Shown here one piece after another: positions 178-22,197 of a stretch of DNA of 22,636 bases (positions within the stretch are counted from its first letter, which is position 1; each line of letters begins with the position of its first letter). The notes beneath the pieces were generated by a model that saw only the letters and a list, made by a program, of their open reading frames with translations, made no database searches and was not told the origin of the DNA. The position numbers and the translations under genes are program-made. Source of the stretch: a bacterium (GTDB lineage: Bacteria; SZUA-182; DTGQ01); the NCBI GenBank assembly GCA_040752695.1, contig JBFMGO010000101.1, positions 1 to 22,636 of the forward strand. Reading direction: 5' to 3'.

Positions 178-3100
178 ATGGAAAAAGCTGAAAGGATCAC
201 TGAATTCACCGAAAGGATCACCGAATCTACTATTGACGCTATCAGGAGGGAGATCGGCAGGGAAAAGATCTCCTATGAGCACATATATCGCCTTGAGAAC
301 GGCTATACCCTGATTGCAGTGGTAAGCAAAGAGAAAGAGCAGGAAGGCCGCCAGAAGCAGGCAGCCCGCCAGGGGGAGCAGGAAGGCCGCCCCGAAAAGG
401 AGGGCTTCTACCGGGTCACGCTGGCCACTGATATTCCTGGCCCGCTGATCCTGCACTGGGGAGTGGGTGGACGATTTCTCTTCGAATGGACCCTGCCTCC
501 ACCCTCCATCCGTCCTGAAGGGACGACCCTGTTTCAAAACAGTGCCGCCCGGACTCCCTTTGCTGATCAGCCTGTCCGGCAGGGGAAGGAGGGGATGGCA
601 ATGAGGATTTTGCATCTTCAAATGGGCGAGCAGGAAGCCCCACGGGGCATTTCGTTCGTGCTCTTTCAGCCCGCTTCCGGCCTCTGGATAAAGGATCATG
701 GGCGCAATTTCACCATTCCGGTCATCATCCCCGATCAATACAGCAAAGTCTTGGGTGATCCCGGTCTTATAGCTCTGGCTGAAGCGATCATCGACAGGGA
801 GATGAACAGCGGGTCATGGACCCTGATGCACCGGTTCAATCTCTGCCATGATCTTTTGGATGAGATCCCTCTCCATAACCTGGACGGGCTGGCCTTGCTC
901 TTTGTCTGGCTGCGTTTTTCCGCCATCAGACAATTGGACTGGCAGAGGAACTATAATACCAAGCCCAGTGAACTGAGCCACGCCGAAGACCGCTTGACGA
1001 TCAAGCTGGCTGAACGCTACGCCGTCACAAGGGCGGGTGAAGAAGCAGGGGAAAGCCAAGGAGCAATGGCAATGACAGGGGAAACAGACAGAGCAGCAGG
1101 GACAACAGAGAGAGCAGGAAAAAATGAACCATCGGGGGCAAGGGGGGCAACAGAGAGAGCAGCGCGGGGCAGGGAACTTGTCCGCCTGCTCCTGACCACC
1201 CTGGGGCGGGGCGGTGAGGGTCAAAAGGTTCGTGACGAGGTTTTACATATCATGCACCGCTATGGTATCAAGGAGGTTTCCGGTCATTTTCTGGAGGAAT
1301 GGCACCAGAAACTCCACAACAACACAACCCCCGATGACGTAGTCATCTGTGAGGCCTATCTGGAATTTCTGAAAGGTAATGGCAACACCGATCTTTTTTA
1401 CCGCAAACTCATGGAGGCCGGCATCACCAAAGAGCGGCTGGAAAGCTACGAGCGGCCGATCAGGTCTCACCCTGAGTTCATGCCGCATCTGAAGGATGCC
1501 CTCATCCATGATTTCGAATACTTTCTGGGGATTCTCAAATCGGTCCACTCGGGTACGGACCTTGGAATTGCCATCCAGGCAGCACGCTACCTCTTTGATG
1601 CAAATATGCACGGCCTCATGGATTTCATATGGTTTCACCAGGCAGATCCCTGGACGCCGGCGGGCACTTTGGCCGAAAGCATCACCGAAGGGCGGCGGCG
1701 TCTTGCAAGCAGGTTACAGGGGTCTTTAGAGGAGCCTTCATATCAGGTGCGCGATATGCTCTTTCTCGATCAGGCACTGGAGGAGTTCCTGCGGGTGGTG
1801 ATAGAGCGGACTTCTTATTCCCTCCTGGAGGGAAATCAACTGGTAGACCTGGCAGCCCTGATGCTCGAAAATCTCAACCTTACACGGCCGGATGATGAGC
1901 TTGCCGCTATCTTCCGCCACTGGGGCCGGCTCAAACAGATGCCCCGTTTTGGCAAGGACTGGTCTTTGAGGGCCGAAGCCGCTCTCAGCCGTCTGAGGCG
2001 TGTTCTCGGCGTATACATAGACGACTATTATCAGCTCCTTCAACCCAAGGCCGAGTTTCTCGGACAAGCCTTCCGTGCTGAAAGCTGGACCATCAATCTC
2101 TTTAGCGAAGAAGTCATACGCGGCCGCTCTGCCTTCATCCTGGCCATGCTCTTGCGCTCCCTTGATCCTATCCTGCGGCAGAATGCCGACCTTGGCAACT
2201 GGCAGGTTATCAGCCGAAACCGCGTCACAGGCGAAGTGAAAGTTGTAGATGTGTTACAGTCAGTGCAGGATAAAAGATACACCCGGCCCACGGTCATTAT
2301 TGCCGATCATGTCACCGGCGAAGAGAATATTCCCGAAGGAGCCGCAGCCGTCATCACCTCTGATCCGGTGGATATTGTCTCCCATGTAGCCATTCGGGCC
2401 AGGAATGCCCGTCTGCTTTTTGCCACCTGCTATGATCCCCAAATCATCAAACGCCTGAAATCGCTCGAAAGGCAGGTAATCAGGCTTGACGTGAACGTTT
2501 CTGGTGAACTCGTCATCGAAGAAAAACCTGGTGCCGAGAGAACGAAGGCACCTTCCGTGAAGGCACCGAAGGCAGCCATGCCTGAACACCGGCCCGGTTT
2601 CACCGCTTATGCCGTACCGATGAGCGATTTCAGCGAGCACACTGTCGGGAGCAAATCCAATAACCTGAGGCGACTGTATGGCAGGCTGCCTGAGTGGATA
2701 AGCCTTCCCACGTCAGTGGCACTGCCTTACGGGGTCTTCGAAAGAGTCCTTGAGGAAAGGAGCAACAAAGATATTGCCAGGCATTACCAGGAATTAACCG
2801 GACAACTGGTTAGAGAGGAAGAAACCGGGGCAAAGGCAGGGGCTGAAGCCGGGGCCGGGGCTGGGGCTGAGCCGGGAGGGACAGGATCAGAAGCTGAAAA
2901 TGCCGGCAGGGAAAGGCTCAAGGAGCGGCTCGATGATCTTCGCCGGTCCATTCTGGCACTCGAAGCGCCGGACGAACTGGTTTCTTCCCTGCACCGGATA
3001 ATGGAGCAGGCAGGGCTGCCCTGGCCGGCCAACTGGGATGAAGCATGGATGTGCATCAAGCGGGTATGGGGCTCGAAATGGAACGATAGAGCGTACTTAA

Positions 3101-3663
3101 GCCGCAGGGCAAGTGGCATTTCCCATGATGCAGTTTTCATGGCCGTGCTCGTTCAAAGGGTAGTCGAGGCTGATTACAGTTTCGTGATCCACACGGTCAA
3201 TCCGCTCGCCAATGACCGGGACACCATGTATGCTGAAGCTGTCCTGGGGCTTGGAGAAACCCTGGTCAGTGATTATCCGGGCAGGGCTCTTGGCTTCTTG
3301 TGCAGTAAAAGAGAGTGTAATCCGCAGTTTCTGGCTTTCCCGAGTAAAAGTGTCGGGTTATTCGGCGGCGGCCTGATCTTCCGCTCGGATTTCAGCGGCG
3401 AAGACCTTTCGGCCTACGCCGGTGCGGGACTCTACAGCAGCATCATGCTGCCGCAGCCCCGTAAGGTTCTCCTCGACTATACGGACGAGCGGCTTGTGTG
3501 GGATGACGATTTTCGAAAAGGCTTTTTGACTGCTGTCTCCAGGATTGGAACAATAGTCGAACAAACCCTGGGATTCCCCCAGGATATTGAGGGCGCCTAT
3601 TCCAAAGAGCATTACTATGTGGTTCAGGCACGGCCCCAGGTGGGAATAGAAAATCAAAAATAA
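178..3663 (+). CDS. Alpha-glucan, water dikinase (GWD1/R1-like) with a single N-terminal CBM45-like module, ~1161 aa
   Basis: Motifs colinear with plant GWD1: WTLMHRFN, FVWLRFSAIRQLDWQRNYNTKPSELSHAEDRLT, LGRGGEG, EEWHQKLHNNTTPDDVVIC, phosphohistidine motif DIVSHVAIRARN (His codon 2383-2385), VGSKS..PTSVALPYGVFE, WGSKWNDRA, GLGETLV..YPGRAL, GEDL.AYAGAGLY, PQDIEG..YVVQARPQ. ATG at 178 follows a purine-rich SD (gaggagaagggg) and is preferred over GTG at 61. Confidence 0.92.
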   Translation: MEKAERITEFTERITESTIDAIRREIGREKISYEHIYRLENGYTLIAVVSKEKEQEGRQKQAARQGEQEGRPEKEGFYRVTLATDIPGPLILHWGVGGRFLFEWTLPPPSIRPEGTTLFQNSAARTPFADQPVRQGKEGMAMRILHLQMGEQEAPRGISFVLFQPASGLWIKDHGRNFTIPVIIPDQYSKVLGDPGLIALAEAIIDREMNSGSWTLMHRFNLCHDLLDEIPLHNLDGLALLFVWLRFSAIRQLDWQRNYNTKPSELSHAEDRLTIKLAERYAVTRAGEEAGESQGAMAMTGETDRAAGTTERAGKNEPSGARGATERAARGRELVRLLLTTLGRGGEGQKVRDEVLHIMHRYGIKEVSGHFLEEWHQKLHNNTTPDDVVICEAYLEFLKGNGNTDLFYRKLMEAGITKERLESYERPIRSHPEFMPHLKDALIHDFEYFLGILKSVHSGTDLGIAIQAARYLFDANMHGLMDFIWFHQADPWTPAGTLAESITEGRRRLASRLQGSLEEPSYQVRDMLFLDQALEEFLRVVIERTSYSLLEGNQLVDLAALMLENLNLTRPDDELAAIFRHWGRLKQMPRFGKDWSLRAEAALSRLRRVLGVYIDDYYQLLQPKAEFLGQAFRAESWTINLFSEEVIRGRSAFILAMLLRSLDPILRQNADLGNWQVISRNRVTGEVKVVDVLQSVQDKRYTRPTVIIADHVTGEENIPEGAAAVITSDPVDIVSHVAIRARNARLLFATCYDPQIIKRLKSLERQVIRLDVNVSGELVIEEKPGAERTKAPSVKAPKAAMPEHRPGFTAYAVPMSDFSEHTVGSKSNNLRRLYGRLPEWISLPTSVALPYGVFERVLEERSNKDIARHYQELTGQLVREEETGAKAGAEAGAGAGAEPGGTGSEAENAGRERLKERLDDLRRSILALEAPDELVSSLHRIMEQAGLPWPANWDEAWMCIKRVWGSKWNDRAYLSRRASGISHDAVFMAVLVQRVVEADYSFVIHTVNPLANDRDTMYAEAVLGLGETLVSDYPGRALGFLCSKRECNPQFLAFPSKSVGLFGGGLIFRSDFSGEDLSAYAGAGLYSSIMLPQPRKVLLDYTDERLVWDDDFRKGFLTAVSRIGTIVEQTLGFPQDIEGAYSKEHYYVVQARPQVGIENQK

Positions 3664-3928
3664 CCGTTCATCTTTTCCTTTTATGACGATATAATAAAGA
3701 AGCCAGGAAACTGAACTATTGCCGAACTATTGCCATAGATATCCACGATTTCCATAATCACTATACTTTTGCACTTTTTAGTAAGTACTTGAAATACCAA
3801 TAACTTCGTAATGACAAAAATACAAAAGCATAGATAGTCATAATTGTAATGATAAACCGAAAACCGTAACTGTAATGAGCCATAGTCATCATGAAAGCCA
3901 GAATCATAACCATCATGAAAACCTGCTC

Positions 3929-3957
3929 TTGACACTATAAATTCTCACCTTGATAAA
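3929..3957 (+). promoter_or_regulatory. Possible sigma70 promoter for the GH13 gene
   Basis: TTGACA (3929-3934), 17 bp spacer, GATAAA (4/6 match to -10), ~30 bp upstream of the ATG at 3989. Confidence 0.3.
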
Positions 3958-3988
3958 CAAGAAAGCGTGCGGAAAGGAGTCCTCTAGC

Positions 3989-5293
3989 ATGGGTCAACCG
4001 GAAAAGATGATCATTTATAATGTATTTCCCCTTTTGGCCGGGAAATTCACCGAATGGGAAAAGCACCTGGTGCGCGCCTCAGAAATGGGATTCAATTGGA
4101 TTTTCGTTAATCCTGTTCAACGTCCCGGTACATCGGGCAGTATTTATGGCATAGCTGATTATTACGATTATAACCCCATCCTGATTGATGAAAAGAGCAG
4201 CTTGAAGCCGCAGGAGCAGGTCAGGGAAGTACTCAAGGCCGCAGAAAGGCTTGGCCTCAAGGTAATGGTGGACCTGGTGATCAATCACTGCAGCGTGGAT
4301 TCCGGCCTCCTGAAATCTCACCCCGACTGGTTTGTCTGGGAAGCCAGAGGCCGGGTCGCTCATCCATTTGCAGATGAGAATGGCAAAAAGGTAGTCTGGA
4401 TGGACCTGGCTCAGTTCGATCACAGGAATACGAGGGACAAGGAAGGCATCTATCAATATTTCCTTGGTGTTGTGAAGTCCATGATAGAGATGGGGTTTAA
4501 GGGATTTCGCTGCGATGCGGCTTATCAGGTTCCCAAAAGCCTGTGGGAGAGGCTCATCGGGGAAATAAAGAGAATGTACCCTGATGTGCTCTTTTTTGCC
4601 GAAACCCTTGGATGTCCGCCGGATCAGACCAGAAGGACCGCCAGTGCAGGCTTCGATTATATATTCAACAGCTCCAAGTGGTGGGATTTCAACAGTCAGT
4701 GGCTCATGCAGCAATACGCCCTCACCCGGGACATTGCCCCCTCGATCGGTTTTCCCGAAAGCCACGATACAGTGCGACTCTGTGAGGAGCTCAATGGCAA
4801 CATCAACGGGCTTAAGCAAAGGTACCTGTTTTCCGCCCTTTTCTCAGGCGGGGTCATGATACCCATAGGCTTCGAATTCGGTTTTCGAAAAAAACCGCAT
4901 GTAGCCAAAACCAGACCCGAAGACTGGGAGGAAACATCTATCGATCTGACCTCCTTCATAACCAAGGTCAACAAGATCAAGGCAGATCACCCGATTTTTC
5001 AGGAGGACGCTCCTACCGAGGTGCAGCACTACGGTGACAACAGGAATGTTCTGGTTATGTGGAAAGCCTCCACTAGAGGGCAGGAAGAGTCTTTGATTAT
5101 CCTCAGCAAGGATATATACAGCAATCAGCACTTTTATGCGGAAACCCTGCAAAAGTTTATCCAATCCGGGGCGCCACTCGTTGACATTTCCCCGGAAGGC
5201 TCCCTGGAATACATCCCTGTGCCATTTTCCTATGAACTTCAGCCAGGACAAGGAATTGTACTGATCACCTTAAGGGAGCTCGCACCGGAATAA
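3989..5293 (+). CDS. GH13 alpha-amylase-family glycoside hydrolase/transglycosylase, cytoplasmic, ~434 aa
   Basis: GH13 conserved regions: VDLVINH, GFRCDAAY (nucleophile), FFAETLG (acid/base), FPESHDT (stabiliser). SD AAGGAG at 3974-3979 before ATG 3989. No signal peptide visible. Confidence 0.9.
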   Translation: MGQPEKMIIYNVFPLLAGKFTEWEKHLVRASEMGFNWIFVNPVQRPGTSGSIYGIADYYDYNPILIDEKSSLKPQEQVREVLKAAERLGLKVMVDLVINHCSVDSGLLKSHPDWFVWEARGRVAHPFADENGKKVVWMDLAQFDHRNTRDKEGIYQYFLGVVKSMIEMGFKGFRCDAAYQVPKSLWERLIGEIKRMYPDVLFFAETLGCPPDQTRRTASAGFDYIFNSSKWWDFNSQWLMQQYALTRDIAPSIGFPESHDTVRLCEELNGNINGLKQRYLFSALFSGGVMIPIGFEFGFRKKPHVAKTRPEDWEETSIDLTSFITKVNKIKADHPIFQEDAPTEVQHYGDNRNVLVMWKASTRGQEESLIILSKDIYSNQHFYAETLQKFIQSGAPLVDISPEGSLEYIPVPFSYELQPGQGIVLITLRELAPE

Positions 5294-5356
5294 TGACAGC
5301 TTCTCTTCCCTCTGTGCGGAATCTTGTGAAACCACTTCTGGATACCCCTCCCTCGA

Positions 5357-5426
5357 TTGGAGTAACGATTTTGGAGTAACGATTATGGAATCAGCAGGGA
5401 ATAATAGCAGGGAATAGTAGGGAATA
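5357..5426. repeat. Short tandem repeats: 2x ttggagtaacgatt and 3x ag(c/t)agggaata
   Basis: Perfect 14-bp tandem at 5357-5370/5371-5384; 11-bp units at 5393, 5406 and 5416. Confidence 0.85.
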
Positions 5427-5491
5427 AAGATGTGCTCTGACGATATAAAGATTAGTCGTATATTCTGATGGAATAAAGGAGGGAGATTTAT

Positions 5492-5941
5492 ATGACTAAT
5501 CAGGAAATAGTCGATAGATTGAGCTCATTGATGAAGCTTGACATTGATGCAGTCAAATCCTATGGGCAAGCTATCGAGGAAATCGACATTTCGGATGTTC
5601 GTCAGCAGGTTACTCAGTTCCGTGACGATCACAACCGACATATCACCGATCTTTCCAATATGATCCGTGAATTCGGAGGTACTCCGCCGAGATACTCGGT
5701 TGACATGAGGGGTTTCTTCATGGAGGGTTTTACTGCTATCCGCAGTCTCACCGGGACTGCAGGTGCACTGAAGGCGTTGCATACCAATGAGGAAATAACG
5801 AATAAAGGATATCTTGACGCTCACTCATTGGAAATGTCGCCTTCTGTCATGGAGCTCATAGAGAAAAATTTCGCTGATGAGCAGCGCCATTTGAGCTACA
5901 TTACGCAGGCAATTAACAACAAGATCTGGGAAAAAAGGTAG
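5492..5941 (+). CDS. Ferritin-like four-helix-bundle protein (DUF2383/PA2169-like)
   Basis: 149 aa; LDIDAVKSY..AI, FRDDHNRHI..L..GG.P, NEE.T...Y, NFADEQRH pattern of ferritin-like fold; SD aaggaggga upstream. Confidence 0.85.
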   Translation: MTNQEIVDRLSSLMKLDIDAVKSYGQAIEEIDISDVRQQVTQFRDDHNRHITDLSNMIREFGGTPPRYSVDMRGFFMEGFTAIRSLTGTAGALKALHTNEEITNKGYLDAHSLEMSPSVMELIEKNFADEQRHLSYITQAINNKIWEKR

Positions 5942-5967
5942 GTTCCGGATTATTGTTTGTTGTATTT

Positions 5968-6021
5968 GGGATCAGGCCCTTTTGAGGTGACAGAAACATC
6001 ACCTCAAAAGGGCCTGATCCC
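5968..6021. repeat. Perfect 23-bp inverted repeat (hairpin, 8-nt loop)
   Basis: gggatcaggcccttttgaggtga (5968-5990), loop cagaaaca, tcacctcaaaagggcctgatccc (5999-6021). No U-tract follows on either strand. Confidence 0.9.
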
Positions 6022-6044
6022 TCCCCATGTACCCACCATTATAT

Positions 6045-6132
6045 AGAGAAAAATGCATGACTCGTAACTCATCGAGAGAAAAACCGTGACTCGTAATCCG
6101 TCGAGAGAAATCCATGATTCGTAACTCACATC
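6045..6132 (+). repeat. Three degenerate ~29-bp tandem copies overlapping the debranching-enzyme start
   Basis: agagaaaaatgcatgactcgtaactcatcg / agagaaaaaccgtgactcgtaatccgtcg / agagaaatccatgattcgtaactcacatc. Confidence 0.8.
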
Positions 6133-8573
6133 CGGTATCCGGCACTCAGCACGCAGTAGCCGGTACCCGGCATTCAGCATCCAGCGCCCTGTATTCCTGT
6201 TCCTCTTCCCCTGTCAGTATGCCGGTCAGGAGAATGTCCTGGCCAGAGGGTGGCCCTGCTGATCTTGAAGCCATCCTCAGTCGCGAGTGGCTTATAACCA
6301 ATGGCCTTGGCGGCTATGCATCGGGTACGGTTTCCGGAGTTTGCACGCGCCAATATCACGGTCTGTTGATTGCAGCTTTGCCTGCTCCTTTGGGCAGGGC
6401 AGTAATGCTCACCAGTCTTTTCGAAGAGCTTCTGTTTCCGGACGGCAGAGCAGTCGAATTGGGGGCAGATGAGCGGTCCGAAAAAGAGCTGCATATACCC
6501 GGTGCCAGGCACTTGCGAGAATTCAGACTCGATTCGGGGATCCCCATTTGGCGCTACGAGACGTGCGGCCTTGTTATCGAAAAGAGTGTTTTCTTTCCCA
6601 TCGGGCAGAACACCGTCTACGTCGATTACCGGTTGATCTCGGGGAAAGAGCCTGTTCGGCTGAAGCTTCGGCCTTGCATGCACTTTCGAAAGATACATAC
6701 AGAGGTGAGCAGTGCTTCCCGGCGGCCTTACACGATCAAGGTCTTGCCAAACCGTTACGAGATAAGAGGAGCGGATGAAGCTTTCCCTGCGCTTCGGCTG
6801 TTCCTGTACGGCAGGCAGAGGTCTCTCAATCTGATCGGCAGAGGGTTCAGGGATGCTTTTTACCGGGTGGAGCAAAGGCGGGGCTATGCGTGCTGCGGCT
6901 CACTCTGGTGCCCGGGCTCCCTGGAAGCTGAAATCAGGAAGACTGGAGCGGATGGGCACCGGTATGAGGATGAGCACACGGATGAGGATGGACGTGGGTA
7001 CCGGCACGAGGATGAGCACACGGAAGAGGATAAACATAGGTATAGGCATGGGCATAGGCACAAGACAGGGCGTACGAATGATCGCAGGCATAGGCAAGAG
7101 CACCTGTCTAAGGGTGCCGGCTATGCGGCAGTAACCCTGGTTGCCTCCACTGAGCCTTGGGATGTCATGCTTGGTTCTCATCCTGAAGAAGCCCTCGAAG
7201 CTGAGATTGCGCGCAGGCAAAAGCTTCTGGCAGCAGCTCACAGGAGCGTTCAGTCAGGACCGGCTGCTGAGCTTGTTCTGACTGCTGATCAGTTTATCGT
7301 CACTCCCGGTATCAGGTCGGCTGGCTCTACTGCCCCGACTGGTTCTGCTGGTTCTGCTGGCTCGGCTGGTTCGCATGGTTTGACTGGTTCGGCTGGCTCG
7401 GCTGACTCAACTGGCCCGGCTGGTTCGGATGACAGGGCAGGTGCAGAGGGGGAGGGAAATACCGGCGCTGGTGGTAACCGGCAGCAGGCAGCCACTCTTA
7501 TTGCAGGCTATCACTGGTTCACTGACTGGGGCCGCGACACCATGATCAGCCTTGAGGGGCTTACCCTGGTCACGGGCAGATTCAGTGAGGCGGAATGTAT
7601 TTTGCACAGGTTTGCCAGTCACGTCCGTGATGGACTTATCCCCAATCTGTTCCCCGAAGGCCAGGCCGAAGGGGAATACAATACGGCAGATGCAACACTC
7701 TGGTTCTTCCATGCCATTGACCGCTACCTTCTGGCTACAGGAGACACCGCCATGCTGGAGCGCCTCCTGCCAACCCTTCTCGACATCAAGGATCACCACC
7801 AAAGAGGTACTCTTTTTGGCATCGGTGTCGATCCTGCGGACGGGCTTTTGAGACAGGGTGCAAGCGGCTATCAGCTCACCTGGATGGACGCCAAGGTGGG
7901 GGATTGGGTGGTCACGCCAAGGCGCGGCAAAGCGGTTGAAATCAATGCACTCTGGTATAATGCCCTGCGGCTCCTTGACAAGTGGGTGCGAAGCGGGCAG
8001 GGCGATGAGAAAGCGCAGCCGATTGCCGAATTGGCCGAACGGGTCTATGATTCGTTCAACCGCCGCTTCTGGTATGAGGAGGGAGGGTATCTGTACGATG
8101 TGATTGATGGCGGCGGGTACGGTGAGGATACATCCTTTCGGCCAAATCAGATTCTGGCTATTTCTCTGCCCTATCCGGTGCTTGATCCTTCACGATGGAA
8201 GCCTGTCCTTGAGGTCGTCGAAAAAAAGCTTCTCACGCCATTCGGACTGCGGTCTTTGTCAACTGATCATCCTGACTATAAGAGAATATATCATGGCGAT
8301 ATCAGGGAGCGGGATGCAGCGTATCACCAGGGAACCGTCTGGTCCTGGCTCATCGGCCCCTTTATCGATGCATGGCTGAAGGTGCATCCCGGCGATCAGG
8401 CAGGCGCAAGGCGCTTTCTCGATGGGCTTTTGGCCCATCTTGATCAAGCCTGTATCGGATCTATCAGCGAGGTTTTTGACGCCGAGCCGCCCTTCAATCC
8501 AGAAGGATGCGTATCGCAGGCATGGAGCGTTGCCCAGATGCTCCACTGCTTGGTCAAAACGGCCTCATCTTGA
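6114..8573 (+). CDS. Glycogen debranching enzyme / amylo-alpha-1,6-glucosidase (GDE_N + GDE_C, GH133-type) with two low-complexity inserts
   Basis: REWLITNGLGGYASGT, R.YHGLL, ADQFIV, IAGYHWFTDWGRDTMISLEGL, GLIPNLFP, YNTADATLW, LTWMDAK..TPRRGKAVEINALWYN, YHQGTVW, QAWS. True start may be later (ATG 6219 or 6234). Confidence 0.93.
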   Translation: MIRNSHPVSGTQHAVAGTRHSASSALYSCSSSPVSMPVRRMSWPEGGPADLEAILSREWLITNGLGGYASGTVSGVCTRQYHGLLIAALPAPLGRAVMLTSLFEELLFPDGRAVELGADERSEKELHIPGARHLREFRLDSGIPIWRYETCGLVIEKSVFFPIGQNTVYVDYRLISGKEPVRLKLRPCMHFRKIHTEVSSASRRPYTIKVLPNRYEIRGADEAFPALRLFLYGRQRSLNLIGRGFRDAFYRVEQRRGYACCGSLWCPGSLEAEIRKTGADGHRYEDEHTDEDGRGYRHEDEHTEEDKHRYRHGHRHKTGRTNDRRHRQEHLSKGAGYAAVTLVASTEPWDVMLGSHPEEALEAEIARRQKLLAAAHRSVQSGPAAELVLTADQFIVTPGIRSAGSTAPTGSAGSAGSAGSHGLTGSAGSADSTGPAGSDDRAGAEGEGNTGAGGNRQQAATLIAGYHWFTDWGRDTMISLEGLTLVTGRFSEAECILHRFASHVRDGLIPNLFPEGQAEGEYNTADATLWFFHAIDRYLLATGDTAMLERLLPTLLDIKDHHQRGTLFGIGVDPADGLLRQGASGYQLTWMDAKVGDWVVTPRRGKAVEINALWYNALRLLDKWVRSGQGDEKAQPIAELAERVYDSFNRRFWYEEGGYLYDVIDGGGYGEDTSFRPNQILAISLPYPVLDPSRWKPVLEVVEKKLLTPFGLRSLSTDHPDYKRIYHGDIRERDAAYHQGTVWSWLIGPFIDAWLKVHPGDQAGARRFLDGLLAHLDQACIGSISEVFDAEPPFNPEGCVSQAWSVAQMLHCLVKTASS

Positions 8574-8854
8574 GCCCGCCTTCTGCACTTATTCGGATAC
8601 CCCAAACCTCCCTTCCCGCTCAGAATGACGAAAGATTCCGACACACTATCCGATCGCGTATTTACTGCGCAAGTGCCCCTTTTGCAAGCCGCACATGAAA
8701 TACGCGGCATGTTTTCATCCTTCTCCCCGTGATAAGGGCTTTCGGAAAGGGGGTTTTGGGGGTGCGACAAAATGCCCCCTCGTTTTTTATAGGACAATGA
8801 AGAAGCAGGATATATGAAGAGCAAAAATAGAGAAAGAATAAGGAGAAACAGGTT

Positions 8855-10072
8855 ATGAAAGCTGTTGTTTTTTATGGGATCGGTGATATCCGTTATGAAG
8901 AGAATGCACCTGAGCCGATAATTCAAAAACCCACGGATGCCATCGTGAGGCTCACAGCCAGTTCTATTTGCGGAACGGATTTACACATGGTTCGCGGCAC
9001 TATGGGTGAGATGGAGCCAGGTACGATTATGGGACACGAAGGTGTCGGAATTGTCGAGGAAATCGGCACTGAAGTAAGGAATCTGAATATCGGGGACCGG
9101 GTCATTATTCCATCCACTATTGCCTGTGGCTATTGTGCCTATTGCCGGGCTGGCTATTACGCCCAGTGTGACAATGCCAATCCGAATGGAAAACGGGCAG
9201 GGACTGCCTTTTACGGAGGGCCGAAACTCTCCGGGCCTTTTCACGGTCTTCAGGCAGAAAAAGCCCGCATTCCCTTTGCCAATGTCGGATTGGTGAAGGT
9301 TCCCGAAGGATTGACTGACGAGGAGGCCATTTTAATTTCCGACGCCTTTCCTACAGGCTATTTTGGGGCCAAATTAGCTGAGATTAAATCGGGTGATACG
9401 GTTGCCGTTTTCGGGTGCGGCGCAGTAGGCCAAATGGCCATTGCCAGTGCCAAATTTCTGGGAGCCGGACGTATCCTGGCTGTCGATCATGTTCCAGCCC
9501 GTCTTCAGATGGCCAGGGATCAGGGTGCAGAGGTTATCGACTTTAACGCCGAGGACCCGGTTGAAGCGATCCTGAATCTCACTGGCGGTATCGGTGTTGA
9601 CCGGATTATCGATGCGGTCGGGATCGATGCCCAGCGCCCGGTCAGAGGTCCGGCGGCGGAAGCGGCCAGGAAGAAGGCTGAGCAGTTCAGGTGGGAGCTT
9701 GAGCAGGTCGCACCAAAAGCCAATCCGCAAGGGGGGCTTTGGAGACCGGGAGATGCACCGTCCCAGGCGCTCGAGTGGGAAGTTAATGCGCTGGACAAGG
9801 CAGGAACGCTCGCTGTTATCGGAGTCTATCCGTCCACGGTCAACTTCTTCCCCTTTGGTACGGCAGCGATGAAAAATATCACGGTTAATATGGGAAACTG
9901 TAATCATCGTAAATACATTCCGATGCTCGTGGACCTGGTCGAAAGCAGCAGAGTCGATCTGCCCGAGCTTCCTACTCAGGTCGAGCCCTTTGGCAGGGTT
10001 ATCGACGCCTATCGGGCTTTTGACCAACGGGAGTCGGATTGGATCAAGGTGGAGTTAATCTTCGGTAAATGA
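8855..10072 (+). CDS. Zinc-dependent alcohol dehydrogenase (MDR family, formaldehyde-dehydrogenase-like)
   Basis: ICGTDLH, GHEGVG, structural Zn cysteines CGYCAYC..C, SDAFPTGY, Rossmann GCGAVG; SD aaggag ~8840. Confidence 0.93.
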   Translation: MKAVVFYGIGDIRYEENAPEPIIQKPTDAIVRLTASSICGTDLHMVRGTMGEMEPGTIMGHEGVGIVEEIGTEVRNLNIGDRVIIPSTIACGYCAYCRAGYYAQCDNANPNGKRAGTAFYGGPKLSGPFHGLQAEKARIPFANVGLVKVPEGLTDEEAILISDAFPTGYFGAKLAEIKSGDTVAVFGCGAVGQMAIASAKFLGAGRILAVDHVPARLQMARDQGAEVIDFNAEDPVEAILNLTGGIGVDRIIDAVGIDAQRPVRGPAAEAARKKAEQFRWELEQVAPKANPQGGLWRPGDAPSQALEWEVNALDKAGTLAVIGVYPSTVNFFPFGTAAMKNITVNMGNCNHRKYIPMLVDLVESSRVDLPELPTQVEPFGRVIDAYRAFDQRESDWIKVELIFGK

Positions 10073-10230: not shown

Positions 10231-11166
10231 TCAAGGGAAAATATCCTTCCCCCCTATAGTTGAAGGCTTTGCAGCAGCGATGGGGGGAGAGAAAGGTCCG
10301 GCTGGCTTTCGACCCGGGTCGGGTGACTTTTGGATGGAAATTGGCCCTTTGCCTGGGTGGTGAAGGGTGGGAATGATTCTCTTGAGGCTTTGAGTCTCAT
10401 CTTCATAGAGTTCCAAAGCTGGCCCCATACATCCCCAGCAGGGGACATTACCCTTGAGACATCGGGCTCCGCAACCCTGGACGGTTACACTCCCCCTGCA
10501 CAGCACTCCCTGATCAAGGAAACACATCGTCGGATCGATCTTCTGGGTTTGGATGGCTGTATGGAATGAGTCAAGAACAGACGGCAGGTCCTGATGGCAG
10601 GCAGAGGCACTTTTTTGCCTTTTGCACTCGGCACAAAGGCTTTTCGTTGTCTTTGGTTTTGGCTCCTGTCCCTGCAGGAGGTTCATGATAATCTCTTTCA
10701 TGTTTTCCAAAAGGGGAGGGCATCCCGGTATGTAATAATCCACTGCTACAAACTGATTCAAGGGCCTGGCCTGGGGATGGAAGTATTCTCCTCCCTCACC
10801 CGGCATGTCCCCTGGTCCTGAAGGCTTCTTTTCAATAATGCATTCTTCCTGAAACAGCCTTCTTATCCTTGACAGCTCTCCAAAACAGGCGCACGTTCCA
10901 ACGGCCACCAGAATTTTGGATTTTTCCCGGAATTTTCTCAACATCATTTCATTCGCTTTGTTGGCTACGGCTCCTTCGATGATTCCGATATCCACGGATG
11001 GAATATCTTTCTCCCCAACAACGGTAAAATAATCAATCCTTATGCCTTCCGGTCGAAGGTGTAAAAATTCTTCCCTCAGATCGAACATTTTCATATGGCA
11101 ACCAGAACAGCTTCGCAACCAGGTAGTAGCGATACTGACTATTGGTCCCATTTGGATTATCTGCAT
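10231..11166 (-). CDS. MvhG/VhuG-like [NiFe]-hydrogenase small subunit (group 3c-like; NuoB/20-kDa fold plus C-terminal Fe-S region)
   Basis: WLRSCSGCH, IIEGAV, VAVGTCACFG, VDYYIPGCPP, LCAEC, CFLDQGVLCRG.VT..GCGARC...NVPCWGCMGP; SD aggag upstream on the minus strand. Confidence 0.85.
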   Translation of the reverse strand: MQIIQMGPIVSIATTWLRSCSGCHMKMFDLREEFLHLRPEGIRIDYFTVVGEKDIPSVDIGIIEGAVANKANEMMLRKFREKSKILVAVGTCACFGELSRIRRLFQEECIIEKKPSGPGDMPGEGGEYFHPQARPLNQFVAVDYYIPGCPPLLENMKEIIMNLLQGQEPKPKTTKSLCAECKRQKSASACHQDLPSVLDSFHTAIQTQKIDPTMCFLDQGVLCRGSVTVQGCGARCLKGNVPCWGCMGPALELYEDETQSLKRIIPTLHHPGKGPISIQKSPDPGRKPAGPFSPPIAAAKPSTIGGKDIFP

Positions 11167-12287: not shown

Positions 12288-13679
12288 ATGAAGAAAATAG
12301 GCGTTTTGATTAGAAATCACTCTCCTATTCTGTTAGGGGAGCAAAAATGGTATTTCGAGAAAGTCCTGAGGACCAGAAAGTACATTCCCGGCGTTTATCT
12401 GCGGGGAGCAATAACTGATCAACTCCTTCGAGGCCGCACGAACATTGACCAATACTTCGATCAATTGATCTGCGACTCTCATCGCTGGGGAACGGAAATC
12501 GTTTTTCCCAATTGTTATCCCAATCTCAACGCCTATACTTTTCCCATGCTTCTTCCAGTAACTGCAAAAAGCTGCAGATGGAAGCCCGGATTTGTACATG
12601 ATGGGAATTTCGATGAAGAGCATGGAGTATTTGATACCCTGCTCAACCAGATCATATTCCAGCAGATAGTAGCCTCTTCTACCGAGAGCGGACGGCCGTC
12701 ACGGAGTTTAACCCTGGTTCAGAATGCCTATCGCACACTCATCGAGCAGGGAACCCTTCACTGCAATGTCTGTCATGAGCTTGCGAATTCCTATCAGGTT
12801 GATTACGCAAAGCCTCACGGAAAATTTTGGGAAATTCCGGTTCAAACCTATCAGCAGTCAAAATCCTCTCTCTCCCGCAACCACCGGAAGCGGCAACAGG
12901 AAGAATCTTCCAGTGAACAGAGCCAGTTTATCGAATGTATCAGCGAACGGACGTGGTTTTTGGGTTTTTCTTTCCTTCCTGATGATCCCTCCTTGATTAA
13001 GCTGTATAAGGATTCGCTGGAGAGCATCACTCACCTCGGAGAACCCGCTGATAAAGGCAAGGGCAGAGGGAAAGTCGAGGTCAGAGTCAAGGAGATAGAT
13101 GACCATACTCTCTCCCTCAGACAGAGAGTCCTGCAATTCAACCAAAAGTACAGGGAAATGCAGGAGGACTATTCGGTTCGAAAAACCGGCGAGGTGATTA
13201 CGGTGAACCTTCAATCCGAAGCCATTCTCAGAGACAGGGATGGGCGAACGACTTCCAGGCTCAGCGCATCTTTTCTGGTGGAGGAATTGAGGCGGATTTA
13301 CCGTAGAATGTATGCAGAGGAACTTTCGGATCTTGAAACCAGGTGCAGGGAGCTCATTTCCGTTACCCAGCCTACCTACGTAACCGGCTGGCACAGCGGG
13401 TGGAGACCTACCGATGAAGCGGTTCCGGCCATAGCCAGGGGAAGCGTGTTCGCTTTCTCCTTCCCATACCTGAGTGCAAGGCTTCTCTCAGCCCTGGAAT
13501 GCCTCGAAAAACAGGGTATAGGAGAAAGCAAAAGGGAAGGATACGGCCAGGTTTTGATCTGCGATCCTTTCCACCTGGAGGTTCCTTTACCGAGGGCCTC
13601 ATCGGACCTCTACAAGGGTGTCCGCCACTCCCCTTTTAAGGCGCCCCTTTTCCATAAGGCTGGTCATAATATACACTAG
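12288..13679 (+). CDS. Csx10-like two-RAMP-domain protein (type III-D CRISPR-associated family), orphan
   Basis: RAMP1: SPILLG..YIPGVYLRGAI..FPNCYP..degenerate G-loop LGEPADKGKGRGKVEV. RAMP2: TVNLQSEAIL..VTGWHSGW..AIARGSVF..LEKQGIGESKREGYGQV.ICDPFH. Confidence 0.75.
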   Translation: MKKIGVLIRNHSPILLGEQKWYFEKVLRTRKYIPGVYLRGAITDQLLRGRTNIDQYFDQLICDSHRWGTEIVFPNCYPNLNAYTFPMLLPVTAKSCRWKPGFVHDGNFDEEHGVFDTLLNQIIFQQIVASSTESGRPSRSLTLVQNAYRTLIEQGTLHCNVCHELANSYQVDYAKPHGKFWEIPVQTYQQSKSSLSRNHRKRQQEESSSEQSQFIECISERTWFLGFSFLPDDPSLIKLYKDSLESITHLGEPADKGKGRGKVEVRVKEIDDHTLSLRQRVLQFNQKYREMQEDYSVRKTGEVITVNLQSEAILRDRDGRTTSRLSASFLVEELRRIYRRMYAEELSDLETRCRELISVTQPTYVTGWHSGWRPTDEAVPAIARGSVFAFSFPYLSARLLSALECLEKQGIGESKREGYGQVLICDPFHLEVPLPRASSDLYKGVRHSPFKAPLFHKAGHNIH

Positions 13680-13750
13680 AGCCGAATATATAGAATATAT
13701 ACACGTTACTATATTTTGTGGGTGGAAATGAAAAAAGAAGAGGGAAAAAC

Positions 13751-14041
13751 GTGGCTCTTGATGAACGGATAAAAACCAGACGTGAAGAGATCTTAGCTTT
13801 GGCAGCAAAGTATGGTGTATGCAATGTCCGCATCTTTGGCTCTGCAAGCCGGGGTGAAGCTGGTCCGGAAAGTGATGTGGATGTCCTTGCAGAATTAGAG
13901 CCAGGCCGCAGCCTCTTTGACCTGGGTGGATTTTTAATGGACCTGCAAGACCTGCTGGGCTGTAAGGTAGACGTGGTAACCGAAAAGGGCTTACACTGGT
14001 ACATACGTGATCAAGTATTGAAAGAGGCGGTACGGCTATGA
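13751..14041 (+). CDS. Minimal nucleotidyltransferase (MNT/MntA-type antitoxin)
   Basis: [16 protein letters not shown] (GS-x10-DxD), [17 protein letters not shown] 13751 after purine-rich SD; ATGA overlap with next gene. Confidence 0.92.
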
Positions 14042-14376
14042 AAAATGATAAGCTTTACCTTATCCATATCAGTGAGTGCATCGAACGCATTGAGCAGTAT
14101 GTCAGCGGTGGTAAGGATGAGTTTTTAGATTCCACACTCATTCAGGATGCCGTGCTGCGCAATCTTCAGACGCTGGCTGAATCTACCCAGCGTATTTCGA
14201 GTTCACTGAAGGCTACATATCCTCATGTACCGTATGTACCGTGGAAAGATATCTCAGGCTTTCGAAATATTTTAGTGCATGATTATCTGGGGCTCGATCT
14301 TGAGAATATTTGGCAAGTTGTCGAATGTGAACTGCCTCCCCTCAAGCAGCAAATCAATGCGATAATAAGAAAATGA
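14038..14376 (+). CDS. HEPN (DUF86/HepT-type) RNase toxin
   Basis: [33 protein letters not shown] (Rx4HxY motif); translationally coupled to the MNT gene. Confidence 0.92.
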
Positions 14377-14631: not shown

Positions 14632-17600
14632 CTACTGCTCGCGGATGAGTTGCAGCAGTTCGTCTGCGGACATTTTGCCGGTCATGTCGCTGCCGTCGAG
14701 AAGGTTTGATGCCAGGTCGCGCTTATCCCGGTGCAGGGCTACGATTTTTTCCTCAATGGTGTGTCTGGTAACCATCCGGTAGATGGTCACGGGCCGCTGC
14801 TGGCCGATTCTGTGTGCACGGTCGGAGGCCTGGTCTTCCACAGCCGGGTTCCACCAGGGGTCCATGTGGATAACGTAATCTGCTGCGGTCAGATTCAATC
14901 CGAATCCTCCGGCCCGCAGGCTGATCAGGAAAAGGTCGCCCTTACCTGCCTGAAAGGAGTCAACCCGCTGTTTTCGCTCTCTGGCTGGAGTGCTGCCATC
15001 GAGGTATTGGTAGGTAATCCCCTTGGCATCCAAAAATTCCCGGATAATGGACAGATGATCGACAAACTGGCTGAACACCAGGGCCTTGTGCCTGTTCTCC
15101 AGGAGTTCGCCCACTACTTCCGCCAAAAGGGTCAATTTGGAGCTTTCCAGGCTGATTTTGGCGTTGACCAGGCGGGTGTTGCAGCAGGCCCGGCGCAATT
15201 TCATAATTTCGGCCAGAATCTGCAGGTGCCTCTGTCCGGCCTGACCGCCGGGCGAATCCTGAAGCCGCTGCAGGGCCTCCTGCCGCAGGGCTTCGTAGAA
15301 GGCGGTCTCCTCGTCGCTCATTTCAACATGCAGGGTGATTTCCGTGCGCGAGGGCAGATCTTCCAGCACCTGGCTTTTCGTTCTGCGCAGGATGAAGGGC
15401 TGAATGAGCTTCTTTAATCTTTTTCTGGCTTCCCTGTCCTGAAATTTTTCGATAGGAAGGGCGAACTTCTGGTTGAATTTTTCCAAAGACCCCAGTAATC
15501 CCGGATTGATGAAGTGGAAGAGGTTCCACAATTCACCAAGGTGGTTTTCAATGGGCGTGCCAGTGGTGATCAGCTTAAAGTCGGCCTGAAGAGCCATGGC
15601 GGATTGAGACCTTTTGGTGGTCATGTTCTTGATGGCCTGGGCCTCGTCAAGAACGATCGTCTGCCATTGGACCTCGGAAAGGATTTGCGACTCCATCTGA
15701 AGCAGGGCATAGCTGGTGACCAGAGCATCGAAGGGGCCCAGGTCATTGATTTGTTTTTTCCGGTCCTTTCCCGAAAACTGGACGATTTTCAGGGTTGGGG
15801 CAAAGCGAAGCGCCTCGTCCACCCAGTTCATGCATACGGAAGTGGGAGCAACGATCAGGGTCGGACCCTTATCAGCCCGCTCCAGAATCAGGGCCAGGGC
15901 CTGGACGGTCTTGCCAAGGCCCATATCGTCGGCCAGACAGGCACCGACGCCCCATCTGGATAACTGGACCAGCCATTGGAAGCCCTCCACCTGATAATCG
16001 CGCAACTGGACCTGCAGGGTCGAGGGAAGCGTAATCTTCAGGCCTTGAGATTGATCGATTCGCTTTAAGTGATCCTGCCAGGCATCATCTGCTTCCACAA
16101 AACCTGCGCTGTCAGTAAAATCCCGTATGGCGAAAGAGGCCAGGGGGTGGAACCTGACACCCCTGGCTGTCGTTTCGGTAAAAGCCCGAAACTCATCCAG
16201 CCGCTTTCGGAACTCATTGGTCAGGGCCAGGAACTGCCCCTCTCCCAGGGGGATAAAACGGCCGGGCGATGAATCTAACAGTTCAAGGAGCTTTCGCATA
16301 TCGAGCACCTTGGAATCATCCAGTTGCACCTCTCCTGTTGCGCTGAACCAGTCCTTTTCCTTGTGTATCTTAAGCTTCATCTGGTCAAAGGAGATCTGCC
16401 GGCTGACTATCTTCATCCTTTCCCCTTCGGGCCATTCGACCTGAATGCCTTCAATCCCCTGCAGATCAAGCAGGGTTTGCAGGCAATCCTCCATTCCCCC
16501 TATGGACCATTCGAAACTGTCATCGTCCAGCCCTGCGAGGGTCGGGCAGGCAGCTATCACCTCTTTGGCCTTTTCCCTCTCTTCCTGAAGGTTTCGGGTG
16601 GTTTGAAACCGCTTGCCATCTATCTCGGCGATAATATTCTTTCCTCCGTGGCCGGGTTTGAGATAAGGGCCTCCCCTGGAAAGAGGTTTGACCAGCATTT
16701 CCAGCCTGAAACCGGAGCCTGAAGGGAGTAAATGGATGTAGATTTGGGGATTCGCCGCGAGCTCTTCGACATCCTCTACACTGCCCTCGACCGAAGACTG
16801 CACCATAACCAGGGAAGAGAGAGCGGCCACGGCACTCAGGACACTCTCTTTGGCCTCAGCCGGCACCTTCAGGCCGCTCCGCCCGAGGATTTTGGCTATG
16901 GCCTGATGCTGCTGGGTAACCTCGATGACTTTATATTTGGCCAGTCCCTCCTTGATGACCAGCAAGGCGGTGGCGTCGGTAATGTCTTGAGAAAGCCTGA
17001 TATTAAATTGATTTTCCTGGCGCTCGACGAGCAGTTCCAGGTTACCGGCCAAAAGCTCCACCCTGGTGTCAGGACTATCCGCAAGGTATAGGAGAGGATG
17101 GCCGATCATGGCCACCAGAGTTTTTGGCCAGTCGAAGGAATAGGTCGTTTCCCAATAGTCGCGGCTGGCCGTGAGCGTTGCACATATTTTCTGATCCTGA
17201 GCAGTCAAAAAATCCAGATTCTTCCGCGCATGGAGCCTGCTGAGGGCAACGGAACGGCCCTTTGACCATCGCCCGTTCTTGGTGAGCTTTTGCTCTATAG
17301 GCTGAAAGGTGCAGTAGTGACCACGAAAACCAACCAGCCAGACAAGCCGCGATTTGCTGACTGCCTTTCCCCTGCCTTGCGGAGTCCCCTCTGCCAGGCA
17401 GGTCAGGGCCTTGAGAGACCTCTCCCATTCAGCCTCATAGCGGATAATGCCCAAAATGGACTCCATGCCGGTCTTGTCCTTTATTTCATCAGCCCGCTTT
17501 CGATATGCCGGATCATCGGGAAACAGAGCATCGAGGAGGCTGGCGGATTCCAGCGAAAACCACAGGTAGCCATTTTCCTCAGCTCTTTTAAATATCAGCT

Positions 17601-18789: not shown

Positions 18790-19148
18790 AATGTATAACG
18801 ATACCCTTTACCTTGTTTGTTTTCACCCTGTCGTATTGATACTTGGATTTTATAGTCTATACTCTGATCCTTATCGTGACTCATACATCTACTATATCAC
18901 AGATACATAGTATACAGTTTTAAAGAAAAGATTGAAAGTGTTTTAGCCGTGATTACGCACCACCAAAATATAATTTGACATTTCTCCATTCCTGAAATTT
19001 CTTCCAGGCCCGCATGGCATCTTCCGGGCAAGCAAAGGCACGGTGGCACAGTTTGGCAAAAGCCTTTAACATTCCGACCATTTTTTATCTATGGTACAGT
19101 GGAAGAGCTCACCGCTACACCATCGATGATTTCCACCGCTGGAAATGA

Positions 19149-19784
19149 TCAGAAGACGATATCATCGAAAATGACCGGAATTCGACTCTTGAATTCATTA
19201 AGGAGGGAACAGGCTACCTCAAGCATCTGGGGGTGACTGGCAGGCGAAGTTCTCAACTTGAAGAAATGCCTCCATTCACGGAGGTTCATGGTTATAACAA
19301 TCTCGGTCTTGAGCGAACTGGGAAGCACGCTTCTGGCTTCCTGGGGCGTGGCGCCTAATGCAAGGAGTTTCAGATAGGCTTTTTCAGCCTCTTCCATAGC
19401 CTTTTCCCAGATTTCGTATTTTTGTTTATCCTCAATGCTCTCACCCTTCCAGAAGCAGGGGTCAATGACCGTTATTTCATTGCCAAACTTGTCCTTGCCA
19501 TAATTACAGTAACGCGTGCTTTCCTGACTGTAACTGGCTATTCTATGTCTGACTATTTCGTGGCTCACACCCCGGTCGCAAATGATCCTGACCGTAACTT
19601 TTTCATGCTCCAATACCGTTTCATGGCCATGCTCTATGAGAAACTTTACAAATCCCTGAGCAGAATCAGTCGTGATCCTGTTTTCGCTCTTATAACAAGT
19701 CCGCCCAGCTTTTTCAATTTTTTTTAACATTTCTTCACCACTTATTGTATCTTCAATAATTACTTGCGGCGATACCCTGCGCAT
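19149..19784 (-). CDS. thyX: Flavin-dependent thymidylate synthase ThyX
   Basis: AGRTCYKS, GHETVLEH, ThyX motif RHRIASYSQESTRY, ARSVLP, NLREWRHF..LR. Start ATG 19784 (or 19790) after aggaaggga. Confidence 0.95.
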   Translation of the reverse strand: MRRVSPQVIIEDTISGEEMLKKIEKAGRTCYKSENRITTDSAQGFVKFLIEHGHETVLEHEKVTVRIICDRGVSHEIVRHRIASYSQESTRYCNYGKDKFGNEITVIDPCFWKGESIEDKQKYEIWEKAMEEAEKAYLKLLALGATPQEARSVLPSSLKTEIVITMNLREWRHFFKLRTSPASHPQMLEVACSLLNEFKSRIPVIFDDIVF

Positions 19785-20055
19785 ATGCATATCCCTTCCT
19801 GAGAGTTTATCCCCAAACTCCTGCTGTTCAAGACCCCAGGTACATGGCGCGCTCAATACACGACCGGACAGAAGGAGCAAGTAACAGGTACAAAATGATC
19901 ATGAATCGGTATTCATGAAACTGGTCGGGTAATTCCCGCGCCGTGTACTAAGCTTGCAATCTGCACGCTATACTATCTCTTGTGGTCACGTCAGTCAAGT
20001 ATAGACACTCCGGATAACTTTACGAGGAGCTTGTCTGGGGGATGTACCTTTTGAA

Positions 20056-20118
20056 TTCTTGGAATACGGCATACGATTTTTGGAACATAGTATGTGATTT
20101 TTTGAGCATAGCATGCGA
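20056..20118. repeat. Three degenerate 21-bp direct repeats in the divergent thyX/LRR intergenic region
   Basis: ttcttggaatacggcatacga / tttttggaacatagtatgtga / ttttttgagcatagcatgcga. Confidence 0.7.
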
Positions 20119-20446
20119 TAAGTTACTGCATCTTTGATCACAATATCTGGCGGTTAAAATTTTGAATATTCCTCTTTCCGGATAGCCTCCGGGCGACACA
20201 CCCGTCAGGTGGATATCCTGGCAGGATAGTATCGTTAGAATATTATAGCAGGATTGAACCTTCCTTTGAATCACCAAATGTACAGATAATTTACTTAAAG
20301 GCTCTGCTAAAAAATTAATTTATGCCGATATTTTGAGATGAAAGAGGACATACCTTAAAAGTTTGGTATATTAAGGTAACCTTACCAAAAATACATGCTA
20401 AATTATAAGTAACTGAAGGTTATAGGAGAAAAGAAAGGAGAAAGTC

Positions 20447-21838: not shown

Positions 21839-21929
21839 GGTGAATCCAAACGAGCCGCCCCTCATAACCGGTTAGACCGAGGAGATAAGAGAGGAGCGGG
21901 AAACAAGAACAGGAATAATAACATTACTA

Positions 21930-21969
21930 TCACTATGTTACAATATTATGTCACTATATTACAATGTTA
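21930..21969. repeat. Near-identical 19-bp duplication
   Basis: tcactatgttacaatatta (21930-21948) and tcactatattacaatgtta (21951-21969). Confidence 0.7.
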
Positions 21970-22097
21970 CTCAACTTTTACCATTATGCGCATGAGATCT
22001 TACTTGAAAGCCCTTCCTGAAGGAGATCTTATCGCTAAGGAAGAGTTTTTGTCACGGTTCTCCGCACAGGAGGCAGAAACCTGAGACGTTGAGAGTC

Positions 22098-22141: not shown

Positions 22142-22197
22142 CCTCACTTATCTCACTATGATGAAGAAAGAGTAGTGAATTGATCACTGTGGTGTAT

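Follow-up and report, generated by a model that had tools for sequence, protein, structure and literature searches.

A glucan, water dikinase homologue and its GH13 neighbour in an uncultured bacterium, with a candidate glucan phosphatase encoded on another contig

The stretch of DNA analysed here, called the window below, is an entire contig (JBFMGO010000101.1, C101; 22,636 nucleotides) of a 6.05 Mb bacterial assembly that is 96.6% complete. Five genes follow one another on its forward strand (Table 1). The first codes for a protein of 1161 amino acid residues which, judged by its domains and residues, is a true homologue of glucan, water dikinase (GWD), and the second for an enzyme of glycoside hydrolase family 13 (GH13), the one recurrent GWD partner in the window. 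We consider it rather probable that the intact GWD phosphorylates and the GH13 enzyme cuts the cell's own cytoplasmic storage α-glucan, and that a dual-specificity phosphatase (DSP) encoded on another contig removes the phosphate. The host assembly (G000) is compared below with its two congeners, G001 and G002; all three are 96-97% complete.

The dikinase homologue and its family

The protein matches the Pfam domains PF23166, PF22973 and PF01326. A CBM45-like domain (residues 74-182) is followed by a central helical domain (about 200-670), a phosphohistidine domain (674-782, with His736) and an ATP-binding domain (about 820-1156). The central domain aligns with potato GWD1 (PDB code 9HA9) with E=5.1e-79 in two stretches, 200-278 and 330-670. 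Residues E644, E645, R648, R667, W675, E716 and H736 correspond to potato E900, E901, R904, R923, W931, E971 and H992, where the correspondence was taken from the 9HA9 alignment for the central domain and from offset and motif for the His domain, in the numbering of PMC13553574. Among 184 aligned bacterial homologues with lengths of 900 residues or more, R648, H736 and K826 are kept in all rows, W675 and E716 in 183, E644 and E645 in 178 each, and R667 in 177. All mapped catalytic residues and the tryptophans of the carbohydrate-binding module (CBM) are retained in the window protein. The potato redox pair C1003/C1007 corresponds to Leu747/Cys751, and a Cys at the first site occurs in none of the 184 bacterial rows. 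The window GWD has a single CBM45-like domain; some bacterial homologues have two (L013). Low-complexity insertions at residues 55-75, 282-328 and 883-903 are missing from most homologues.

Phosphoenolpyruvate synthase and rifampin phosphotransferase gave only short matches to the ATP domain, far under the cut-off. Eukaryotic contamination of the bin was rejected because introns are absent, a Shine-Dalgarno (SD) motif is present, synteny with a congener reaches as far as the convergent hydrogenase gene, and the protein falls in a bacterial clade. By a simple counting method, the ratio of nonsynonymous to synonymous substitution rates (dN/dS) relative to G002 is 0.20 for GWD, 0.11 for GH13, 0.21 for the debranching enzyme and 0.11 for the dehydrogenase, with dS of 0.9-1.1. 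These values indicate purifying selection on the four genes; with open frames and ratios of 0.11-0.21, a pseudogene was rejected as well.

A word-seeded search found 1807 proteins of the GWD family among the 7993 candidates scored, and a 50%-cluster library contained 513 at E<=1e-30. The scan of GTDB species genomes, which gave 79 GWD loci in 78 genomes, is biased to close relatives because it was seeded by six 8-residue patterns. The titles of these loci include Desulfobacterota, Nitrospirota, Verrucomicrobia (20 of 79), Myxococcota, Planctomycetota, Gammaproteobacteria and others. A FastTree phylogeny was calculated for 146 rows; library proteins shorter than 990 residues were left out, plant PWD was not included, and the eukaryote labels in our trees are inferred from sequence features. 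The bacterial GWD1-like proteins fall mostly in a clade of 50, which includes the window GWD and stands beside a clade of plant- or algal-looking sequences. The window GWD nests with Desulfobacterota-type sequences, apart from its order-mates G006, G011 and G012. An order-level clade was rejected by the approximately unbiased test (p=4e-5; the test was picked once an initial tree had been inspected). The position of the protein outside such a clade would follow from horizontal re-acquisition or from hidden paralogy.

Partners of the dikinase

An orthologue of the GH13 enzyme, with 58-70% identity, is present in 20 of the 79 GWD loci (in one it is truncated by the contig end); a 21st match is distant, at 23%. 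The genes for the ferritin-like protein, the debranching enzyme and the dehydrogenase occur in none of the 79, and likewise in none of the 53 that have at least 6.5 kb of downstream sequence. The initial annotation had described the five genes as a cluster for the mobilization of phospho-glucan. Its co-oriented open reading frames and their identities were confirmed (Pfam and NCBIfam), and the linkage was found to recur for GWD and GH13. Outside the genus it fails for the other three genes, and neither congener yielded a ferritin gene; a conserved five-gene module is not supported. The GH13 assignment is based on PF00128/PF14701. The motifs of the catalytic triad (FRCDAAY, FAETL and ESHDT) are intact, the Asp, Glu and Asp presumably occupying regions II-IV, and the best PDB matches are a mixture of amylases, GlgE and a maltosyltransferase, all with E>=8e-20; the enzyme may be a hydrolase or a transferase.

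The common neighbour of GWD is a different protein, an endonuclease-IV-like TIM barrel (PF01261) found in 47 of the 79 loci. It lies directly after GWD in 44 of the 71 loci whose downstream sequence reaches 1 kb or more. It occurs either as a free-standing protein or as a fusion with a second dikinase. In 27 of the other 31 genomes it is encoded elsewhere; beside GWD or at a distance, it is therefore present in 74 of the 78 GWD genomes. Over 46 aligned copies, H67, H101, E132, D165, H168, H194, H196 and D205 are kept in all, and H207 and E241 in 45. We take this His/Glu/Asp set to resemble the metal ligands of endonuclease IV. The nearest solved relatives, MJ1311 and TTHB071, are uncharacterised. 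In 17 of the 79 loci a protein of about 360 residues without a Pfam match follows the TIM-fused dikinase (for example, L013:17138-18226). Weak similarity to the TIM hidden Markov model (HMM) suggests that it may be a second, divergent barrel; no copy was detected in the host.

A TIM-barrel orthologue was found in six of 21 genomes, and not in the host or its two congeners. The HMM, run over six frames of the host genome, detected only a distant protein on contig C28; a distant match of 30% is present in G000 and G002, with no match in G001. The same six-frame search revealed no remnant between GWD and GH13, where a dispersed repeat (Table 1) occupies the site at which most other GWD loci have the barrel gene. 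An assembly gap is a possible cause of this absence. It is a less easy one because the three assemblies are nearly complete and the gap would need to occur three times.

The combination of GWD and TIM barrel is found in G006, G009, G011 and G012. In G002 the order is GWD–GH13–debranching enzyme–dehydrogenase; the convergent hydrogenase subunit gene of the window comes next there too, no ferritin gene is present, and the four-gene order recurs in this one congener alone. From the gene content of the relatives, the locus can be read as a GWD–GH13 pair that lacks the TIM gene and has gained stress-type genes. The five-gene arrangement is local: the debranching enzyme and dehydrogenase genes were attached in the genus, and the ferritin-like gene is an insertion in this genome. 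The latter has a GC content of 0.45, compared with 0.50-0.56 in the other four genes, and occurs in one of 20 relatives, G003, where the surrounding 3.4 kb contain no glucan gene. The dehydrogenase scores 158 bits against the formaldehyde dehydrogenase model TIGR02819, below the cut-off of 637, and among the 20 relatives is found only in G002 (syntenic) and G003. Any link of these two genes with the glucan pathway would be hypothetical.

The debranching enzyme reaches 424 bits against TIGR01561 (cut-off 364) and aligns to the glucosidase half of 8ZEQ with E=2e-24. It contains His-rich and GSA-rich insertions and is 90 residues longer than its G002 counterpart; its start may lie downstream of position 6114, where there is no SD-like motif. 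The enzyme adjoins GH13 in G002 only. The view of the two as a conserved, split indirect debranching enzyme of the eukaryote type lacks support (0 of 79 loci; GH13 matches only over residues 17-114). Such a pair is possible within the genus, where no GH77 amylomaltase was found in the host.

The host has a full glycogen pathway, in keeping with the storage polysaccharide proposed in the initial annotation. Searches by tblastn with neighbour proteins detected two glgC, one glgA, two glgB, three GH57 branching enzyme genes and glgX, and a phosphorylase gene (glgP) is present. The open reading frames beside glgB we take, from their N-terminal features, to be treS-like and glgE-like. Neither GH77 nor CBM20 was found in the host genome. 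Three glucan dikinases are encoded, in three separate clades: the window GWD, C64:1-2778 and C109:16011-19316. The C64 dikinase (L102), cut at its 5' end by the contig start, is widespread in the order and groups with eukaryote-looking sequences (support 1.0; the labels are inferred ones). The C109 dikinase is lineage-restricted, with nine proteins at 47% identity or above.

The gene directly after the C109 dikinase codes for a protein with an immunoglobulin-like (Ig) domain and a DSP domain, and is cut by the contig end (pair G000:C109:16011-20353, equal to L103:4012-8354). Because no glucan phosphatase was visible among the five genes, the initial annotation had expected dephosphorylation to be encoded elsewhere or handled in another way. 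A DSP domain is present in none of the nine window proteins scanned, the genome-wide DSP search gave no match on this contig, and the protein on C109 is the candidate. The dikinase–DSP pair also occurs in G001, G002 and G004; in three relatives a radical SAM-type gene comes next. The DSP is present in all six genomes of the host family and in G013, with an in-match stop in G003 and G013, and in the unrelated locus L181 it lies directly upstream of a TIM–dikinase fusion.

The DSP has 113 homologues, of which the named ones are mostly cyanobacterial. Sources in the series P0282-P0373 include Cylindrospermum, Mojavia, Pleurocapsa, Calothrix and Oscillatoria, together with one chytrid-labelled sequence and one MMETSP match. 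The P-loop reads CRAGIGR in every one of 107 DSPs; it is a CX5R loop of the C-x-A-G-x-G-R type, which is not diagnostic alone (the LSF2 loop is given for comparison in the available text of PMC5779698). AlphaFold models (pLDDT 91) consist of a β-sandwich and the DSP domain, to which some members add another sandwich. With the whole protein as query, Foldseek places laforin (4RKK) and SEX4 (3NME/4PYH) at or near the top with TM 0.27-0.29. The N-terminal domain is an Ig sandwich with invariant Trp47, Trp60 and Trp111. Its best matches are domain N of GlgE and a mannanase domain (Z 10.7; rmsd 3.1 over 114 aligned residues for GlgE), followed by N-domains of amylases. Among the structural neighbours in the atlas, nine of ten rows are α-glucan enzymes or starch-binding modules, with feature scores below 0.9. 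The best 63 of 80 metagenome loci contain the third dikinase in three cases, a TIM–dikinase fusion with GH57 genes in one, GlgX in two and GlgA in two. The Ig–DSP is regarded as a candidate glucan phosphatase; orthology to laforin is not indicated. A long form of the Ig–DSP is located in a stress-type island (L186:1-8924) with a 71% homologue of the dehydrogenase, a BON-domain protein and an FAD/Rieske oxidoreductase.

Proposed function, alternatives and remaining features

By analogy with plant GWD, the enzyme would autophosphorylate His736 from ATP. The His domain would then swivel to the central domain and the β-phosphate would pass to C6 of a glucosyl unit, such units being held by the CBM and the central domain during the transfer. 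The C6 phosphate would disturb the packing of the chains, and the GH13 and debranching enzymes could cut the loosened chains. The Ig-domain/DSP on the other contig would likely remove the phosphate. Linkage alone would suggest that in other bacteria dephosphorylation usually falls to the TIM barrel, and that the DSP has taken this role in the host. The cytoplasm is the proposed site because the reaction depends on ATP and export signals are absent: a crude hydrophobicity check, with no dedicated predictor run, revealed nothing signal-peptide-like at the N-termini, in agreement with the initial annotation. The gene context points to a storage glucan as the substrate. That the window GWD phosphorylates a cytoplasmic storage glucan is likely, and in this respect the intracellular substrate assumed at first is retained.

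Several observations weigh against the proposed function. In this uncultured organism it is predicted from genes alone. The window GWD is off-consensus at 17 of the 308 conserved columns (the median being 10), and it has N1032D, S1072F and D1087S in the ATP domain, as well as E717N, in common with G002. GH13 is optional to GWD: for the 59 loci without a nearby copy, 50 genomes were tested, and GH13 is elsewhere in 16 and was not found in 34. G001 has GH13 alone, with no GWD of the window type found; in G003, where likewise none was found, the dehydrogenase, the TIM barrel and GH13 lie in a stress-type cluster. The neighbourhood counts are raw, with no background rate to compare. The exchange of TIM barrel for DSP rests on one lineage, and G003 has both. 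The DSP adjoins a dikinase other than the window GWD, occurs in one of 50 other GWD genomes, and has an α-glucan gene or dikinase nearby in only 8 of the 63 loci and none in 55, although many of these contigs are short. In structural comparison, protein DSPs (Slingshot, Z 20.7) match its catalytic domain better than do laforin (15.4), LSF2 (15.2) or SEX4 (14.0). Its N-terminal domain matches no Pfam CBM, and unrelated Ig domains reach Z 8-9 with it.

It is important to consider on which side of glycogen metabolism the dikinase acts. An α-glucan gene or a second dikinase is present in 46 of the 79 loci: a second dikinase in 21, GH13 in 19 (at the threshold of this count), GlgA in 14, GH57 branching enzyme in 13, a second GH57 in 12, GlgX and GlgB in five each, MalQ in four, and GlgC and phosphorylase in three each. 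Genes of synthesis and branching are thus about as frequent as degradative ones. The dikinase could therefore act in synthesis, where phosphate would tune the branching or solubility of the growing glycogen and the adjacent hydrolases would be incidental in the genus. The counts of GlgA, GH57 branching enzyme, GlgB and GlgC against phosphorylase favour this, as does the lower affinity of branching enzymes, a bacterial one included, for phosphorylated glucan, as stated in the available text of PMC13011383. However, the window has GH13 and a debranching enzyme as glucan neighbours and lacks a synthase, and the plant enzyme is best known for its role in breakdown (PMC12892837, in the part accessible to us). 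Breakdown is favoured because of these neighbours and this plant precedent, and a synthetic role seems unlikely.

The initial annotation had gone further and read the five genes as a single unit, linked to stress or dormancy, for the mobilisation of a possibly semicrystalline granule resembling starch. In its favour, four genes keep their order in G002 and show purifying selection, and the dehydrogenase family occurs in stress-type islands elsewhere. According to the accessible portion of a preprint (bioRxiv 10.64898/2026.09.25.754361), GWD correlates perfectly with semicrystalline glucan in eukaryotes and some Verrucomicrobia make starch-like granules; verrucomicrobial titles are found among the loci. 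Against the unit stand the absence of three of its genes from the 79 GWD loci of other species, the failure to find the ferritin gene in the congeners, and a strong hairpin and a terminator-like site inside the run. A crystalline substrate is not implied by GWD alone because potato GWD1 also phosphorylates oligosaccharides of DP3-4 and glycogen (PMC13553574), though the correlation seen in eukaryotes keeps it possible. We regard this explanation as quite improbable. Still less credible is the view that the dikinase phosphorylates some other acceptor, or is a drifting copy whose main reaction is ATP hydrolysis and which its two paralogues make redundant: the three host paralogues, the failure to find the window type in G001 or the usual TIM partner here, the lineage-specific ATP-domain substitutions and the roughly 2% of ATP that potato GWD1 passes to glucan in vitro (PMC13553574) speak for it, but dN/dS is 0.20 at dS near 1, the mapped catalytic residues and CBM tryptophans are all kept, and the glucan-gene context recurs over several phyla.

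A wider proposal extends the phosphorylation and dephosphorylation of a storage glucan to other organisms. In many uncultured bacteria a storage granule resembling starch might pass through a full, reversible cycle of phosphorylation. Two unrelated phosphatases would serve it, the endonuclease-IV-like metal barrel in most lineages and in the host family an Ig–DSP convergent with laforin/SEX4, so that the genus would record a swap. This is tentative, and we would rather doubt it at present. If true, the breadth of the bacterial dikinase clades reopens the question of the origin of eukaryotic GWD. Phosphorylation of starch is commonly regarded as an invention of eukaryotes; a broad bacterial GWD family, its glycogen context and two candidate phosphatases make this view testable.

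The remaining features of the window are included in Table 1. The gaps between the five genes are 325, 198, 172 and 281 bp. Promoter-like matches number 11 (7.7±3.2 by chance) and terminator-like ones 15 (10.5±3.2), overall not above chance. The hydrogenase subunit gene, convergent with the dehydrogenase gene, is syntenic in G002. A 67% homologue of the Csx10-like gene lies in G002 directly upstream of the second dikinase (L120); no other cas gene was recognised in the window. The genes in the last part of the window are unrelated to the glucan finding.

Table 1. Coordinates of genes and other elements in the window
Feature	Positions	Strand	Remarks
GWD homologue	178..3663	+	1161 aa; GAGGAG upstream
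Dispersed intergenic repeat, about 75 bp	3761..3835		43 BLAST matches in genome at E<=0.01, own copy included
GH13 enzyme	3989..5293	+	434 aa; ATG at 3989
DUF2383/PA2169-type ferritin-like four-helix bundle	5492..5941	+	Pfam/NCBIfam
Perfect 23-bp hairpin after ferritin-like gene	5968..6021		single copy in genome; -47.2 kcal/mol
Amylo-alpha-1,6-glucosidase-type debranching enzyme	6114..8573	+	GDE_N + GDE_C; TIGR01561
Second, weaker repeat	8617..8671
Terminator-like stem-loop between debranching enzyme and dehydrogenase genes	8758..8779	+	consensus match only
Zinc-dependent medium-chain dehydrogenase, stress-island type	8855..10072	+	ADH_N + ADH_zinc_N
Lone VhuG-like hydrogenase small subunit	10231..11166	-	below cut-off
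Csx10-like RAMP gene	12288..13679	+	below cut-off (131 vs 177 bits)
Two short overlapping ORFs	13718..14376	+	presumably a nucleotidyltransferase/HepT-type toxin-antitoxin pair
Region with further genes	14632..22636		ThyX (PF02511); LRR protein with export-like N-terminus; presumed SNF2-like helicase

Comparison with known systems

The literature seen here gives little precedent in bacteria. Bacterial glucan phosphorylation is treated as unknown in the available text of PMC13666283 and PMC13011383, and a bacterial glucan phosphatase is considered unlikely in that of PMC2714694. A figure legend of Cenci et al. 2018 (PMC6260743, in part) states that some bacteria could have gained GWD by lateral transfer. 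A characterised bacterial GWD or glucan phosphatase was not found in a search that left subscription journals and supplements mostly outside its scope (the GWD tree in Fig. S5 of the preprint may include bacterial sequences).

The window GWD resembles plant and algal GWD1 (EC 2.7.9.4; StGWD1, PDB codes 9HA9/9QVI) in the domain order CBM45–central–His–ATP and in its key residues, and it is 42% identical to P0142, a sequence with plant GWD1 hallmarks (a label inferred from sequence). It differs from plant GWD1 in having one CBM45-like domain and not two, no transit peptide and Leu747 at the first redox Cys. Its context is a bacterial gene cluster, and the enzyme is known from its gene alone. Compact, single-CBM bacterial dikinases without the redox disulphide could be useful for structural work and for enzymatic starch modification.

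The debranching enzyme, above the family cut-off, resembles the archaeal-type enzyme of TIGR01561 and the glucosidase half of the eukaryotic indirect debranching enzyme. Unlike the latter, it has no fused transferase, and the adjacent GH13 enzyme matches the eukaryotic transferase only over the short N-terminal section given above.

The host as a whole recalls the plastid cycle of GWD/PWD with SEX4/LSF2 (and laforin): it has three dikinases, hydrolases, a debranching enzyme and a phosphatase composed of a β-sandwich and a DSP domain. However, laforin and SEX4 are no nearer to the host DSP domain than protein DSPs are, no listed CBM family corresponds to the sandwich, and an Asn replaces the His before the catalytic Cys.

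The nearest bacterial counterparts are the clusters of GWD, TIM barrel, TIM–dikinase fusion and GH13, which have a GWD of the same clade and the same GH13 orthologue. In contrast to these, the TIM barrel was not found in the window locus or its genome, and debranching enzyme, dehydrogenase and ferritin-like genes are added. The locus is an unusual bacterial form of a system known in eukaryotes; its five-gene arrangement itself matters little. What it contributes is the missing TIM barrel and a possible replacement phosphatase, beside a two-gene core of GWD and GH13.

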